In this document: piece after piece, positions 2,859 to 34,720 of the stretch | How the letters are laid out: the number at the start of each line of letters is the position of its first letter | Numbering within the stretch: position 1 is the stretch's first letter | DNA from: a virus | Lineage: Duplodnaviria > Heunggongvirae > Uroviricota > Caudoviricetes | Direction: 5' to 3' (one strand) | IMG/VR virus record: IMGVR_UViG_2713897161_000005 | DNA: 45,139 bases | The notes under the pieces: generated by a model | The model's database searches: none | What the model was told of the DNA's origin: nothing | The model's input: the letters and a program-made list of their open reading frames with translations, nothing else | Position numbers and translations under genes: made by a program

Positions 2859-3606
2859 NNNNNNNNNNNNNNNNNNNNNNNNNNNNNNNNNNNNNNNNNN
2901 NNNNNNNNNNNNNNNNNNNNNNNNNNNNNNNNNNNNNNNNNNNNNNNNNNNNNNNNNNNNNNNNNNNNNNNNNNNNNNNNNNNNNNNNNNNNNNNNNNNN
3001 NNNNNNNNNNNNNNNNNNNNNNNNNNNNNNNNNNNNNNNNNNNNNNNNNNNNNNNNNNNNNNNNNNNNNNNNNNNNNNNNNNNNNNNNNNNNNNNNNNNN
3101 NNNNNNNNNNNNNNNNNNNNNNNNNNNNNNNNNNNNNNNNNNNNNNNNNNNNNNNNNNNNNNNNNNNNNNNNNNNNNNNNNNNNNNNNNNNNNNNNNNNN
3201 NNNNNNNNNNNNNNNNNNNNNNNNNNNNNNNNNNNNNNNNNNNNNNNNNNNNNNNNNNNNNNNNNNNNNNNNNNNNNNNNNNNNNNNNNNNNNNNNNNNN
3301 NNNNNNNNNNNNNNNNNNNNNNNNNNNNNNNNNNNNNNNNNNNNNNNNNNNNNNNNNNNNNNNNNNNNNNNNNNNNNNNNNNNNNNNNNNNNNNNNNNNN
3401 NNNNNNNNNNNNNNNNNNNNNNNNNNNNNNNNNNNNNNNNNNNNNNNNNNNNNNNNNNNNNNNNNNNNNNNNNNNNNNNNNNNNNNNNNNNNNNNNNNNN
3501 NNNNNNNNNNNNNNNNNNNNNNNNNNNNNNNNNNNNNNNNNNNNNNNNNNNNNNNNNNNNNNNNNNNNNNNNNNNNNNNNNNNNNNNNNNNNNNNNNNNN
3601 NNNNNN
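2859..3606. other. N-run (748 nt, unresolved or masked sequence)
   Basis: Continuous n characters; ORFs crossing it are artefacts. Confidence 0.99.
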
Positions 3607-28678: not shown

Positions 28679-29560
28679 NNNNNNNNNNNNNNNNNNNNNN
28701 NNNNNNNNNNNNNNNNNNNNNNNNNNNNNNNNNNNNNNNNNNNNNNNNNNNNNNNNNNNNNNNNNNNNNNNNNNNNNNNNNNNNNNNNNNNNNNNNNNNN
28801 NNNNNNNNNNNNNNNNNNNNNNNNNNNNNNNNNNNNNNNNNNNNNNNNNNNNNNNNNNNNNNNNNNNNNNNNNNNNNNNNNNNNNNNNNNNNNNNNNNNN
28901 NNNNNNNNNNNNNNNNNNNNNNNNNNNNNNNNNNNNNNNNNNNNNNNNNNNNNNNNNNNNNNNNNNNNNNNNNNNNNNNNNNNNNNNNNNNNNNNNNNNN
29001 NNNNNNNNNNNNNNNNNNNNNNNNNNNNNNNNNNNNNNNNNNNNNNNNNNNNNNNNNNNNNNNNNNNNNNNNNNNNNNNNNNNNNNNNNNNNNNNNNNNN
29101 NNNNNNNNNNNNNNNNNNNNNNNNNNNNNNNNNNNNNNNNNNNNNNNNNNNNNNNNNNNNNNNNNNNNNNNNNNNNNNNNNNNNNNNNNNNNNNNNNNNN
29201 NNNNNNNNNNNNNNNNNNNNNNNNNNNNNNNNNNNNNNNNNNNNNNNNNNNNNNNNNNNNNNNNNNNNNNNNNNNNNNNNNNNNNNNNNNNNNNNNNNNN
29301 NNNNNNNNNNNNNNNNNNNNNNNNNNNNNNNNNNNNNNNNNNNNNNNNNNNNNNNNNNNNNNNNNNNNNNNNNNNNNNNNNNNNNNNNNNNNNNNNNNNN
29401 NNNNNNNNNNNNNNNNNNNNNNNNNNNNNNNNNNNNNNNNNNNNNNNNNNNNNNNNNNNNNNNNNNNNNNNNNNNNNNNNNNNNNNNNNNNNNNNNNNNN
29501 NNNNNNNNNNNNNNNNNNNNNNNNNNNNNNNNNNNNNNNNNNNNNNNNNNNNNNNNNNNN
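28679..29560. other. N-run (882 nt, unresolved or masked) between the lysis cassette and packaging genes
   Basis: Continuous n characters; ORFs crossing it are artefacts. Confidence 0.99.
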
Positions 29561-29629
29561 CACTCCAGAAGTGATCACCACCCTGTCTACAGAGCCAGAT
29601 GTGAAGGATGATGAGTAAAATTATCGCTA

Positions 29630-30067
29630 TCATCGAAGGCATTGCGTCCTGATGTATTCCTGCAAGTAGTTAACCTGCGCGGTTATCCTGTCGATTCCAC
29701 TTCGGAGACGGTAATAATTGAGTTCAGCATCTGCTGTAAGTCTTGGGCTTTCTCCATCGCCCATGCTGCTGGCTCCGGTCGTTGGCTTTGCACAGGTGGC
29801 GGCGACTTGCAGGCGCTTACGACCAGCAGAAACATCAGCACGGAGGCTTTCGATAGTCGCGTTAGCATCAGCAAGCTCCTTTGTGTATCTGGCGTCGAGT
29901 TCTGCTACATCACGTTGACGCTTCTGCATATCAGCGATGATGGATGTGGCTTTATCGCGCTGGTCTTTGTAGGCGATGGCGTTATCACGGTAATGATTAA
30001 CAGCCCATGACAGGCAGACGATGATGCAGATAACCAGAGCGGAGATAATCGCGGTGACTCTGCTCAT
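29630..30067 (-). CDS. Rz: Spanin inner-membrane subunit Rz
   Basis: From ATG 30067 (overlaps the endolysin stop, ATGA): [31 protein letters not shown]... matches lambda Rz N-terminus from memory. Confidence 0.75.
29683..29874 (-). CDS. Rz1: Spanin outer-membrane lipoprotein Rz1 (embedded in Rz, +1 frame)
   Basis: 63-aa ORF wholly inside Rz; lipobox LVVSAC followed by a Pro-rich segment. Confidence 0.6.
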
Positions 30068-30567
30068 TGCTGCCCCCACAAACAGACTTCACGCTCAATA
30101 TCACGACGGGTCATCAGCCCTTTCCATTGCTTACCGCCAGCGTATGTCCAGCGACGTAGCTGGTCACATGCGCCTTTGATATCACCCTGGTTTATTTTGC
30201 GAAGAAGCGTCGATGTTCTGAAATTGCCAGCCCCCACGTTGTAGACGAACGAGTAAAGAGCGCCGCGCGTTGTTTCCGGTATATCGACTTTGATGTACGG
30301 GTTAATTTGTCTGGCGACCGTGGCAAGGTCTTTATTCAGGAGAGCTTTGCATTCTGCTTCGGTATACGTTTTACCGAGCATGATGTCTTTTCCTGTATGC
30401 CCGTAACATACAGTCCATACACCAACTATGTCTTTGTAAGGATTATGTCTCACACCTTCCAGACCATCGTTACCACTTGGGCCAGTGATTAACACAGATG
30501 CTATAGCAATAGCCCCGCCACTTATCGCCGCTATTACGCTATTTCGTAGTGCCGGTGACATTGCCAT
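30064..30567 (-). CDS. SAR endolysin (T4 lysozyme-like muramidase with N-terminal signal-anchor-release domain)
   Basis: Gly/Ala-rich weakly hydrophobic N-terminus ([19 protein letters not shown]), then E-x8-D-x5-T catalytic spacing ([17 protein letters not shown]). Confidence 0.75.
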
Positions 30568-30742
30568 TCAATCTGTCCTCGCGCTCTTTGCGCTTGTAGT
30601 ACCAGTTGATGCCAAATGTGCCGACAGTACAAAGAATACCAATGATGACAGCCCAGTCATTCAGGGAGAGAATGCCACCCATCGCAGTCAGTCCTCCGAA
30701 GCTGTAACTGAACCATTCTCTGATTTTGTCCATACGGTACAT
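30539..30742 (-). CDS. Holin (pinholin-like, dual-start motif)
   Basis: 67 aa with hydrophobic helices; N-terminus M-Y-R-M gives two in-frame starts (30742, 30733) separated by a basic residue; overlaps the endolysin 5' end. Confidence 0.6.
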
Positions 30743-31035
30743 GCTCTACCCCTTCATTGAGGGGATTTGCTCTATTTAATTAGGAATAAGGTCGATTACT
30801 GATAGAACAAATCCAGGCTACTGTGTTTAGTAATCAGATTTGTTCGTGACCGATATGCACGGGCAAAACGGCAGGAGGTTGTTAGCGCAACCTCTTGCCA
30901 CCCGCTTTCACGAAGCCAGCCATTGCGCTGGTTTTCTTTTATGCAAAGCACACCGCACCGTAGCCACAGCGGATAAGGTGATTATTTTTGTCTGTCTGGT
31001 ATTTGGTTTGATGTGCTTTCAGAAAGGTCGTGATT

Positions 31036-31071
31036 AAAACGCAAAAAGCCCCGAGCTATTAACTCAGGGCT
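31036..31071 (-). terminator. Intrinsic terminator ~55 nt downstream of the late promoter (tR'-like)
   Basis: Minus-strand RNA AGCCCUGAG-UUAAUAG-CUCGGGGCU (9 bp incl. one G-U) followed by UUUUUGCGUUUU. Confidence 0.55.
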
Positions 31072-31106
31072 TTATTTAACGAGTGCATTTATCCATCGTT
31101 GTGTCA

Positions 31107-31135
31107 AATTTACCCAACTTTATTCAAAAAGTCAA
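31107..31135 (-). promoter_or_regulatory. Late promoter PR' with Q-utilisation region
   Basis: Minus strand TTGACT (31130-35), 17-bp spacer, TAAATT (31107-12); the stretch beginning TTGACT...TAAATTTGAC..AACGATGG resembles lambda PR'/qut from memory. Confidence 0.6.
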
Positions 31136-31177: not shown

Positions 31178-31801
31178 CTAACGTGTGACCGCATTCAAAA
31201 TGTTGTCTGCGATTGACTCTTCTTTGTGGCATTGCACCACCAGAGCGTCATACAGTGGCTTAACAGTGCGTGACCAGGTGGGTTGGGTAAGGTTTGGGAT
31301 TAGCATCGTTACAGCGCGATAAGCAGCGCTTGCTGGCATTCTTGAATAGCCGGCGCCTTTGCATCTTCCGCACTCTTTCTCAACAACTCTCCCCCACAGC
31401 TCTGTTTTTGCTATATCAACCGCACGACCTGTACCGTGGCAATCTCTGCATCTTGCGCCCGGCGTCGCGGCACTACGGCAATAATCCGCATAAGCGAATG
31501 TTGCGAGCACTTGCAGTACCTTTGCCTTAGTATTTCCTTCGAGCTTTGCCACACCACGGTATTTCCCCGATACCTTGTGTGCAAATTGCATCAGATAGTT
31601 GATAGCCTTTTGTTTGTCGTTCTGGCTGAGTTCGTGCTTACCACAGAATGCAGCCATGCCGAATCCGGCTTGTGATTGCGCCATCCCCATAGCAGCCATC
31701 ACATCAGTACCGGAAAGAGAGTCAGAAGCCGTAGCCCGTGGTGAGTCGCTCATCATCGGGCTTTTTGGCGAATGAAATTTAGCTACGCTTTCGAGTCTCA
31801 T
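31178..31801 (-). CDS. Q: Late gene antiterminator Q (lambda-type)
   Basis: 207-aa translation (MRLESVAKFHSPKSPMMSDSPRATASD...CGRCKGAGYSR...) is essentially lambda Q by my recollection. Confidence 0.85.
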   Translation of the reverse strand: MRLESVAKFHSPKSPMMSDSPRATASDSLSGTDVMAAMGMAQSQAGFGMAAFCGKHELSQNDKQKAINYLMQFAHKVSGKYRGVAKLEGNTKAKVLQVLATFAYADYCRSAATPGARCRDCHGTGRAVDIAKTELWGRVVEKECGRCKGAGYSRMPASAAYRAVTMLIPNLTQPTWSRTVKPLYDALVVQCHKEESIADNILNAVTR

Positions 31802-34080: not shown

Positions 34081-34720
34081 NNNNNNNNNNNNNNNNNNNN
34101 NNNNNNNNNNNNNNNNNNNNNNNNNNNNNNNNNNNNNNNNNNNNNNNNNNNNNNNNNNNNNNNNNNNNNNNNNNNNNNNNNNNNNNNNNNNNNNNNNNNN
34201 NNNNNNNNNNNNNNNNNNNNNNNNNNNNNNNNNNNNNNNNNNNNNNNNNNNNNNNNNNNNNNNNNNNNNNNNNNNNNNNNNNNNNNNNNNNNNNNNNNNN
34301 NNNNNNNNNNNNNNNNNNNNNNNNNNNNNNNNNNNNNNNNNNNNNNNNNNNNNNNNNNNNNNNNNNNNNNNNNNNNNNNNNNNNNNNNNNNNNNNNNNNN
34401 NNNNNNNNNNNNNNNNNNNNNNNNNNNNNNNNNNNNNNNNNNNNNNNNNNNNNNNNNNNNNNNNNNNNNNNNNNNNNNNNNNNNNNNNNNNNNNNNNNNN
34501 NNNNNNNNNNNNNNNNNNNNNNNNNNNNNNNNNNNNNNNNNNNNNNNNNNNNNNNNNNNNNNNNNNNNNNNNNNNNNNNNNNNNNNNNNNNNNNNNNNNN
34601 NNNNNNNNNNNNNNNNNNNNNNNNNNNNNNNNNNNNNNNNNNNNNNNNNNNNNNNNNNNNNNNNNNNNNNNNNNNNNNNNNNNNNNNNNNNNNNNNNNNN
34701 NNNNNNNNNNNNNNNNNNNN
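34081..34720. other. N-run (640 nt, unresolved or masked) inside the nin region
   Basis: Continuous n characters. Confidence 0.99.

Follow-up and report, generated by a model that had tools for sequence, protein, structure and literature searches.

The four genes at positions 29630-30742 of the window, by which is meant the whole 45,139-nt stretch of DNA analysed, form the intact late-operon lysis module of a lambda/P22-like prophage located at tRNA-Arg(CCU) (argW), beside yfdC, in Escherichia coli. This cassette probably works through a pinholin, an antiholin, a signal-anchor-release (SAR) endolysin and spanins. The original prediction had placed a lysis cassette at these bounds without stating the strand, which is minus for all four genes; the bounds are exact, position 30742 being the first base of the holin ATG and position 29630 the last base of the Rz stop codon. 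The genes are as follows:

30742..30539, minus strand: holin, 67 aa, beginning MYRMDKIRE
30567..30064, minus strand: endolysin, 167 aa
30067..29630, minus strand: Rz i-spanin, 145 aa, likely start ATG 30067
29868..29683, minus strand: Rz1 o-spanin, 61-aa precursor, ATG 29868

Pfam family-profile scores were far above chance for all four genes, the holin, endolysin and Rz-like spanin families of PHROGs were matched with E-values from 3.5e-25 to 8e-73, and all four reading frames are intact and full-length relative to the profiles of both collections. The host flank, consisting of yfdC and tRNA-Arg(CCT), is 100% identical to an E. coli chromosome and is followed by the integrase. Rfam and tRNA scans returned this host tRNA-Arg as their sole match, with none in the leader between Q and the holin. 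On the 3′ side of the cassette lie a Gp49-family gene, the small terminase and the large terminase, and Q, pR'/qut, terminase, structural genes and integrase are all present in order. A small ORF following Rz has five phage copies that are 98% identical at the DNA level, which is too alike to judge coding selection. It is barely credible that the cassette is instead a non-functional, decaying remnant of a defective prophage, even though many lambdoid prophages of E. coli are cryptic, DLP12 with its essD-rrrD-rzpD among them, and N masking of three stretches in the window limits how far the completeness of the prophage can be judged. One masked stretch, 28679-29560, hides part of a 50-aa ORF and the gene beyond it. 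Against such decay stand the four intact, full-length frames, the ordered set of late and integration functions, and a holin shared with 100% identity by plaque-forming phages, SPN9CC and ST104 among them.

The module is preceded by control elements of the late operon, which are all on the minus strand:

31178..31801, minus strand: late-gene antiterminator Q, lambda-type, 207 aa, directly upstream of the lysis operon
31107..31135, minus strand: pR'-like late promoter with a qut-like element, TTGACT-17-TAAATT, returned by the promoter scan and visible in the sequence
31045..31073, minus strand: intrinsic terminator (tR'-like) downstream of pR', a 13-bp stem followed by a T run
30749..30764, minus strand: short hairpin CCCCU-N6-AGGGG, its 3′ arm being the holin Shine-Dalgarno

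Q matched Pfam Antiterm PF03589 with 193.5 bits and phrog_127 (anti-termination protein Q-like) with an E-value of 8.9e-83, and its homologue is labelled 'antitermination protein' in RefSeq. The pR'/qut segment is 97-98% identical to phages Emek, HK140 and HK544, where it is labelled 'qut site' or 'promoter, similar to lambda Qut site', and the stretch of Emek homologous to the tR'-like element is annotated 'terminator'. The hairpin covering the Shine-Dalgarno was seen in both the minimum-free-energy and the centroid folds; the z-score of the holin 5′ region taken as a whole segment was not significant. Comparable hairpins with other arm sequences cover the Shine-Dalgarno 5′ of essD in DLP12 and of further genes for class II holins, and the hairpin here may tune the choice between the two holin starts.

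In the mechanism that we propose, RNA polymerase initiated at pR' and modified by Q would be expected, on the model of lambda, to pass through the tR'-like terminator into holin-endolysin-Rz/Rz1. The holin gene would then probably give two products, an active 64-aa form from Met4 and a 67-aa antiholin from Met1 that bears one additional positive charge (Arg3) and delays triggering. Both products would enter the inner membrane as a two-helix hairpin. Helix 1, which is weakly hydrophobic, is thought to exit the bilayer, and oligomerisation of helix 2 would produce small holes and collapse the membrane potential. Meanwhile the endolysin would be exported by Sec and kept inactive by its N-terminal SAR helix until depolarisation releases it, after which it would refold and cut the cell wall, leaving the outer membrane to be disrupted by the Rz/Rz1 spanin complex. 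Among these steps, the use of both starts, the exit of helix 1 and the small size of the holes are ascribed to the holin by analogy.

The endolysin matched Pfam Phage_lysozyme PF00959 with 162 bits, is 93% identical to RrrD, the R21-type SAR endolysin, and matched the solved structures 4ZPU and 3HDE/3HDF (R21) with E-values of about 1e-103 to 1e-91. A SAR N-terminus and an E/D/T catalytic spacing had been read from the sequence at the outset, and both were borne out. Residues 9-28 form an N-terminal anchor with 11/20 Gly/Ala/Ser/Thr, and the catalytic motif E37-x8-D46-x5-T52 aligns with E35, D44 and T50 of RrrD and has the canonical E-x8-D-x5-T form of the lysozyme triad (PMC9239132). The SAR segment is nearly identical to that of RrrD/R21, for which the tethered and released forms have been solved (3HDE/3HDF). 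By sequence the protein is a SAR endolysin of the R21/RrrD type and a GH24 lysozyme, and we infer its Sec-dependent export and its release on depolarisation from the 93% identity to the characterised enzyme. The reading frame overlaps that of the holin by 29 nt, or by 23 nt if translation begins at a second ATG at 30561, which gives 165 aa and is the RefSeq start in L001.

The holin matched Pfam PF16080 (Phage_holin_2_3, HP1 holin family, TCDB 1.E.7) with 75.1 bits and an E-value of 4.4e-21, the cut-off being 28.8 bits and the match covering profile positions 1-49 of 56. It also belongs to phrog_20 (holin). PF16080 is the assigned domain in all 44 database homologues for which one has been precomputed, and their sources name them 'HP1 family phage holin'. 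The alignment with S21/R21 that had been suggested as a check held in one half only: R21 aligned, through RrrD, and S21 did not. Against the S21 holin family (Pfam PF04971, Phage_holin_2_1) the holin scored 19.5 bits, below the cut-off of 26, and BLASTP against the S21-like EssD of DLP12 gave an E-value of 0.024 with 8/27 identities, solely at the end of TMD2. No solved structure in the PDB matched the holin, the best match having an E-value of 0.58 and being irrelevant; in NCBIfam neither the holin nor Rz or Rz1 matched any family, and the endolysin had sub-threshold matches only. By sequence the protein is a class II holin of the HP1 family and falls outside the S21 family. PF16080 holins are widespread in prophages of Enterobacteriaceae.

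Only two hydrophobic segments were found in the holin by a simple sliding-window hydropathy analysis, at residues 10-27 and 30-49, and the hydrophobic core is confined to residues 10-49. The first segment reaches a best 17-residue hydropathy of 1.13, with 9/18 G/A/S/T, and the second 1.78. The corresponding values for EssD are 0.56 for TMD1 and 2.02 for TMD2, so TMD1 of the holin is comparable to that of EssD and weaker than its own TMD2, a composition that would suit a releasable, SAR-like helix. The AlphaFold2 model, of modest confidence (mean pLDDT 64.5), has two helices at residues 3-25 and 29-58. The C-terminal 18 residues hold 6 K/R against 3 D/E, a strongly basic tail that would fit a cytoplasmic location. 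A third TM helix was ruled out by length and hydropathy. The contrary outcome named beforehand for this topology check was three TM helices in the holin and no SAR domain in the endolysin; two segments and two helices were found, and the SAR domain is present. The predicted topology is accordingly that of class II, with two TM segments and a basic C-terminal tail.

Whether such a holin is a pinholin is judged from its family membership, predicted topology and partner enzyme, and on this basis we infer, with good support, that it is one. The founding member, HP1 Hol, proved lethal to E. coli but caused neither lysis nor leakage of beta-galactosidase; it was required for lysis in Haemophilus, and its authors took it to be a pinholin that works with a SAR endolysin (PMC7312051). 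A SAR endolysin likewise partners the PF16080 holin in 6 of the 8 relatives examined. In phiE125, the partner lysozyme is annotated with a start that lies past the expected catalytic Glu and shows no SAR segment. Pairing with a SAR endolysin is typical of pinholins and is not sufficient, as P1 and N4 exemplify. Operationally, a pinholin makes nanometre-scale holes: it can rescue an S21 mutant whose endolysin is of the SAR type but not a lambda S mutant whose endolysin is soluble (PMC9239132; bioRxiv 10.1101/2025.11.12.688109). Within the family, comparable data come solely from HP1 Hol, in its lack of beta-galactosidase leakage (PMC7312051).

The protein might instead be a canonical large-hole class II holin, which would still depolarise the membrane and release the SAR endolysin but whose holes would pass folded proteins. 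The SAR endolysin Lyz of P1 works with the holin LydA (PMC9025707), gp62 of N4 frees SAR and soluble endolysins alike (bioRxiv 10.1101/2025.11.12.688109), the holin here lies below the S21 Pfam threshold, and in APSE-7 an HP1-family holin stands beside a non-SAR lysozyme. However, APSE-7 also has a separate lambda-type holin that could serve the soluble lysozyme, and HP1 Hol, of the same family, released no beta-galactosidase (PMC7312051). S21 is also mirrored in the weak, G/S/T-rich character of TMD1 and in the dual start with its additional basic residue; together with the SAR partners in most of the examined relatives, these features make large holes quite unlikely.

Pinholin function need not mean the S21 pathway. 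Mechanistic details of S21 are carried over to the holin by analogy, since it lacks detectable full-length homology to S21. HP1 Hol has no dual start and was reported to be N-in/C-out when overexpressed (PMC7312051), and the PF16080 family may for these reasons not copy S21. A speculative extension, which we hold to be improbable, is that the HP1-family holin here represents a pinholin lineage apart from S21 that independently carried, or retained, a dual-start antiholin and has a different active topology. The latter would accord with the N-in/C-out arrangement reported for active HP1 Hol, in which TMD2 and the C-terminus rather than TMD1 are externalised. If true, such a lineage would form pinholes by a second route that differs in mechanism.

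The dual start noted in the original prediction is real as a sequence feature. The holin begins M1-Y2-R3-M4, with two Met codons, a basic residue between them and the ATG of Met4 at 30733, and M-x-R-M persists in homologues as distant as about 60% identity in the forms MYRM, MQRM or MHRM, position 2 being Y, Q or H. In the homologue of E. coli E423 codon 1 is GTG, still a start codon, and distant family members have MKM (Yersinia phage), MTKM (Mulock) or MTRM (HK225). The N-terminus has a net charge of 0 when translation begins at Met4 and of +1 when it begins at Met1, the same pattern in the 64/67-aa forms as in S21 68/71 (PMC9636201). The 67-aa product from Met1, with the extra Arg3, is the putative antiholin and the 64-aa product from Met4 the putative pinholin.

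It is possible but unlikely that a single start is used, that M-Y-R-M is no functional dual start, and that timing is set by holin concentration alone in the absence of an antiholin, as proposed for HP1, whose hol gene has no dual start (PMC7312051). In line with this, the homologues of mEp010 and APSE-7 start, as annotated, with one Met, gene callers choose Met1 or Met4 variably between genomes, and the Shine-Dalgarno GGGG lies 6 nt from ATG1 and 15 nt from ATG4. The pattern across homologues argues the other way, Met1 and Arg3 being retained while residue 2 varies, the GTG of E423 keeping its capacity as a start, and equivalents of the form M-x-K/R-M or M-K-M recurring in distant family members. 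The S21 gene has the same geometry and uses both starts, according to Barenboim et al. 1999 as recounted in PMC9636201. Two starts yielding a putative antiholin and a putative pinholin are the preferred reading.

Rz matched Pfam Phage_lysis PF03245 with 125.3 bits and phrog_13 over its full length with an E-value of 8.3e-73, and its ATG at 30067 lies in an ATGA overlap with the endolysin stop. The GTG at 30079 given for Rz by the ORF lister is four codons upstream of this ATG. A strongly hydrophobic stretch at residues 4-23, where hydropathy rises to 2.88, forms an N-terminal anchor and is followed by a periplasmic domain, and Cys92 and Cys143, candidates for intermolecular disulfide bonds, align with the lambda-type C99 and C152 in RzpD. 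Rz1 matched Pfam Rz1 PF06085 with 72.4 bits and phrog_3198 with an E-value of 7e-29. As had been claimed from the sequence, Rz1 lies wholly within Rz in the +1 frame; its ATG, preceded by AAGGAG 7 nt upstream, is offset from that of Rz by 199 nt, and the gene spans 0.45 to 0.88 of the length of Rz, which is typical of embedded spanins (PMC6139136). The claim of a Pro-rich lipoprotein stood in part. The lipobox VSAC, ending at Cys20, is present, but the mature 42-aa protein is only moderately Pro-rich, with 5 Pro that all fall in its first 14 residues, compared with 10/40 Pro in lambda Rz1 (PMC6139136). Mature Rz1 has no Cys beyond the lipidated one, and spanin function needs only Rz C152 or Rz1 C29 (PMC6139136). 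By sequence, Rz/Rz1 is a two-component spanin of the embedded, lambda-type architecture.

The same four genes in the same order are found in the P22-like Salmonella phages PS119, PS34, ST104, SE1, SPN9CC, MG40 and Emek (genes 13-19-15) and in Klebsiella phage phiKp_30, whose DNA matches 76-95% of the cassette with 91-97% identity. At the protein level the holin is 100% identical across these phages, gp13 of PS119, ST104 and SPN9CC included, except in PS34, where it is 98.5% identical. The lysis cassette of SPN9CC, with its identical holin, was reportedly studied by Shin et al. in 2014. The whole block from Q to Rz occurs with 96-97% identity in 32 complete E. coli genomes. Unlike in these phages, the cassette here is carried by a prophage of E. 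coli at argW and is followed by another set of genes (a Gp49-family gene and the small and large terminase genes), a difference that is ordinary lambdoid mosaicism.

Compared with phage 21/DLP12 (S21/EssD, R21/RrrD, RzpD/RzoD), the endolysin is 93%, Rz 58% and Rz1 43% identical. Shared with these systems are a small 2-TMD holin, an M-x-x-M dual start with one extra basic residue, a hairpin covering the Shine-Dalgarno and an embedded +1 Rz1. The holins differ in family, PF16080 here and PF04971 there, and in the periplasmic loop, which has 2 residues (N28-D29) in the holin here and several residues, a much longer loop, in EssD. Rz1 here also lacks the second cysteine found in phage 21/DLP12. 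The Hol/Lys pair of HP1 shares the holin family PF16080, the overlap of a small holin with the start of a SAR lysozyme gene, and experimental behaviour that fits small, non-lytic but lethal lesions (PMC7312051). In contrast to the cassette here, HP1 Hol has 78 aa and neither dual start nor antiholin, HP1 Lys is a P1 Lyz-like and not an R21-like SAR endolysin, and HP1 has no recognisable embedded Rz/Rz1 pair (PMC7312051). With S-R-Rz/Rz1 of lambda the cassette shares the late-operon logic of Q, pR'/qut and tR', the dual start of the holin gene and the embedded +1 Rz1 (PMC6139136). Lambda S105, however, is a 3-TMD class I holin making micron-scale holes, and lambda R is a soluble cytoplasmic transglycosylase without a SAR domain (PMC9636201).

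The four-gene cassette is a well-known and ordinary one, a textbook lambdoid module with proteins identical or nearly identical to those of sequenced and partly characterised phages, and its significance is mainly for annotation. The correct label for the holin is HP1-family class II holin, putative pinholin with dual start, and not S21 homologue. Annotations often get the endolysin start or the embedded Rz1 wrong or overlook them, and in RefSeq relatives Rz is named 'lysis protein' and Rz1 is omitted.

The lysis cassette was found at exactly the predicted bounds, 29630-30742, with all genes on the minus strand:

30742..30539, minus strand: holin, 67 aa
30567..30064, minus strand: endolysin, 167 aa; the second ATG at 30561 gives 165 aa, the form that RefSeq annotates in relatives
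30067..29630, minus strand: Rz, 145 aa; ATG 30067 is the most plausible start
29868..29683, minus strand: Rz1, 61 aa; AAGGAG stands 7 nt upstream of ATG 29868

The endolysin and holin genes overlap by 29 nt in different frames (23 nt from the second endolysin ATG), and the Rz start overlaps the endolysin stop codon as ATGA. The Rz length agrees with the 438-nt 'lysis protein' of relatives, and Rz1 is, as predicted, entirely inside Rz in the +1 frame with an ATG-to-ATG offset of 199 nt. Pfam scores were all far above the curated thresholds (Phage_holin_2_3, 75.1 bits; Phage_lysozyme, 162; Phage_lysis, 125.3; Rz1, 72.4) and the PHROGs assignments concurred. The four-gene cassette is real and was correctly interpreted, and its overall description is close to certain. 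At the 5′ end of the endolysin gene (30561-30567) two close Met codons, M-A-M, lie 8 and 14 nt from a GAGGA Shine-Dalgarno sequence, and the start is annotated differently elsewhere, giving 167 aa in phage Mulock and 165 aa in RefSeq E. coli.

The Gly/Ala-rich signal-anchor-release (SAR) N-terminus and the E/D/T catalytic spacing predicted for the endolysin are both present. Residues 9-28, of which 11/20 are Gly, Ala, Ser or Thr, are nearly the same as the SAR segment of R21, the phage 21 endolysin, and of the DLP12 endolysin RrrD, to which the protein is 93% identical across all 165 residues. The catalytic E37-x8-D46-x5-T52 aligns with RrrD E35, D44 and T50 and follows the canonical lysozyme triad motif E-x8-D-x5-T (PMC9239132). 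The proposed R21 alignment was borne out by the PDB matches, 4ZPU (RrrD) and 3HDE/3HDF (phage 21 endolysin), with E values of 1e-103 to 1e-91. The SAR assignment is as secure as sequence alone allows.

The alignment proposed between the holin and S21, the phage 21 holin, failed, BLASTP against the S21-like DLP12 holin EssD giving only 8/27 identities at the TMD2 end. Membership of the S21 family was rejected at 19.5 bits for PF04971 against a cut-off of 26. Judged by its sequence, the holin is a member of the HP1 holin family (PF16080), not of the S21 family, and this is the sole refinement over the original prediction. Gp13 of PS119, ST104 and SPN9CC has exactly its sequence (100% identity), as have the holins of MG40, SPLA1b and further phages, and its database homologues carry the name 'HP1 family phage holin'. 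The hydrophobic stretch covers residues 10-49 only, leaving room for two helices. Segment 10-27 is weak (best 17-residue Kyte-Doolittle mean 1.13; 9/18 residues G, A, S or T), segment 30-49 is stronger (1.78), and N28-D29 alone separate them; EssD displays a like pattern of 0.56 and 2.02, and the stable anchor of Rz reaches 2.88 for comparison. The last 18 residues include 6 K/R and 3 D/E. AlphaFold2 with a 26-sequence alignment placed one helix at 3-25 and another at 29-58, its confidence being modest (pLDDT 64.5). Thus, rather than three transmembrane helices in the holin and no SAR domain in the endolysin, two segments and a SAR segment were found. The holins of Mulock (L006, 1363-1632) and HK225 (L007, 1354-1632), of 89-92 aa, end in a TMD2 and C-terminus of the HP1 family, with 66-74% identity to window holin residues 25-65, behind a longer, unrelated N-terminal part. 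An 89-aa database protein of this type (P0042) matches both PF16080 and PF04971; the double match and the unrelated N-terminus suggest that such holins may be mosaics bridging the HP1 and S21 families.

The predicted dual start, M1-Y2-R3-M4 with a basic residue between two Met, is present and kept in homologues. Across an alignment of 26 homologues, the most distant at about 60% identity, the motif reads MYRM, MQRM or MHRM, with Met1 and Arg3 constant and residue 2 variable, and the 64-aa homologue entries have the start placed at Met4. The N-terminal net charge is +1 from Met1 and 0 from Met4, mirroring the two starts of S21 71/68 (MKSMDK...), in which an additional basic residue turns the longer product into an antiholin (PMC9636201). 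Distant family members read MKM (Yersinia phage 21.09), MTKM (Mulock) and MTRM (HK225), a single start is annotated for the holins of mEp010 and APSE-7, and the HP1 holin lacks a dual start (PMC7312051). There is apparently no experimental study of dual start in the HP1 holin family in the literature surveyed. A 5-bp hairpin, CCCCU-N6-AGGGG, has the holin Shine-Dalgarno GGGG as its 3′ arm, and comparable Shine-Dalgarno-covering hairpins with other arm sequences stand upstream of essD and several other class II holin genes, which suggests, with weak statistical support, that the hairpin may tune start-site choice. In E. coli E423 (L003, 856-868) codon 1 of an otherwise identical holin gene is GTG, not ATG (gagcGTGtaccgtATG), so that the RefSeq entry is the 64-aa form; both starts are retained there, the first of them weaker.

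The holin is quite probably a pinholin, given its family precedent, predicted layout, SAR partner, module swapping and a general rule. HP1 Hol, the founding member, killed E. coli without lysis or beta-galactosidase leakage and was needed for lysis in its host, and its authors concluded that it works as a pinholin together with a SAR endolysin (PMC7312051). Against the pinholin reading, HP1 Hol had an unusual N-in/C-out topology when overexpressed (PMC7312051), large-hole holins can work with SAR endolysins, as they do in P1 and N4 (PMC9025707; bioRxiv 10.1101/2025.11.12.688109), and APSE-7 has an HP1-family holin next to both a lambda-type holin and a lysozyme of the soluble kind, a two-holin arrangement unlike that of the window. 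The pinholin reading also draws on the predicted arrangement of two helices, the first of them weak, which is like that of S21, and on the SAR endolysin partner found in the window and in 6/8 relatives examined (Yersinia phage, Mulock, HK225, mEp010, a Serratia locus and a metagenomic locus). As a general rule, pinholins are encoded by most phages that have SAR endolysins (PMC9239132). The same endolysin-Rz block recurs in E. coli phages at 94-96% identity, where the window holin gene has no match, the alignments beginning at query position 280, about where that gene ends; the SAR enzyme thus appears to have stayed the same while the holin module ahead of it was exchanged. The APSE-7 genes (L005, 1510-2441) run from a 59-aa single-start HP1-family holin through the lambda-type holin to a lysozyme without SAR segment, directly behind a CdtB-like toxin cassette.

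Rz is 58% identical to DLP12 RzpD, with a strongly hydrophobic N-terminal anchor at residues 4-23 and periplasmic Cys92 and Cys143 aligning with lambda-type C99 and C152. The description of Rz1 as a Pro-rich lipoprotein held for the lipobox (VSAC, ending at Cys20 behind a 19-residue signal peptide, with Lys at +2), but the Pro content is only moderate: 5 Pro in the 42-aa mature part, all within its first 14 residues, whereas lambda Rz1 is more Pro-rich with 10/40 (PMC6139136). The lipidated Cys is the sole cysteine of mature Rz1, which lacks an equivalent of lambda Rz1 C29 and, unlike DLP12 RzoD, any second cysteine. A missing Rz1 cysteine is tolerated while the C-terminal Rz cysteine is present, and under this published lambda genetics the pair should be functional; the extent of Rz1, 0.45 to 0.88 of the Rz length, is typical for embedded spanins (PMC6139136).

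A small ORF starting at 29642 on the minus strand overlaps the last 13 nt of Rz, with 27 codons visible (29561-29642) before an N-masked run. Full copies in relatives (L001, 4709-4861; L003, 1958-2110) encode 50 aa and a single hydrophobic helix near the N-terminus, the counterpart of Sf6 gene 65 and epsilon34 gp67 (phrog_11822, unknown function). It adjoins the Rz end in all of 44 phage records, and in epsilon34 a terminator follows it. It is not confined to SAR systems, since HK620 and epsilon34 have it alongside soluble endolysins of the lambda R type. The DNA of five copies is too alike, at 98% identity, to judge coding selection.

The cassette is already known and does not depart from the pinholin/SAR-endolysin/spanin paradigm. 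Its whole DNA is 91-97% identical to phiKp_30, Emek, VSe13, PS34, BTP1, ST104, SE1 and others; 32 complete E. coli genomes carry the entire Q-to-Rz block at 96-97% identity, and 5,130/5,426 carry parts of it. Upstream, in order, stand ninH, rusA, ybcO-like and ninX genes, followed by:

31801..31178, minus strand: Q antiterminator, 207 aa
31135..31107, minus strand: promoter TTGACT-17-TAAATT
31073..31045, minus strand: intrinsic terminator, 13-bp stem

The Q-to-holin leader is 96-98% identical to segments of phages Emek, HK140 and HK544 annotated 'qut site', 'promoter' and 'terminator'. Downstream, past an N run at 28679-29560, come a Gp49-family gene, small and large terminase genes and structural genes. 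The window's left end carries yfdC (formate/nitrite transporter family) and tRNA-Arg(CCT), 100% identical to an E. coli chromosome, and then a tyrosine integrase. Because of this Q/pR′-type leader, the terminase and structural genes and the yfdC/tRNA-Arg/integrase flank, the window is a lambda/P22-like prophage at argW of E. coli, and the cassette is its late-operon lysis module.

The prophage is partly masked by N runs at 2859-3606 (748 bases), 28679-29560 (882) and 34081-34720 (640), the second of which starts 70 bases beyond the Rz stop. In relatives the space at that position, from the cassette to the Gp49-family gene, is occupied by Rha-family regulator, KilA-N or HNH genes. The Q-to-holin leader, free of cargo in the window, carries cargo in relatives: two Serratia-type loci encoding a Serratia fonticola-type holin, P0011 (L011 and L012, 412-1283), hold a PhdYeFM antitoxin and Fic pair there, and E. 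coli E423 (L003, 458-613) and Klebsiella phage Mulock (L006, 767-1086) hold tRNA genes.
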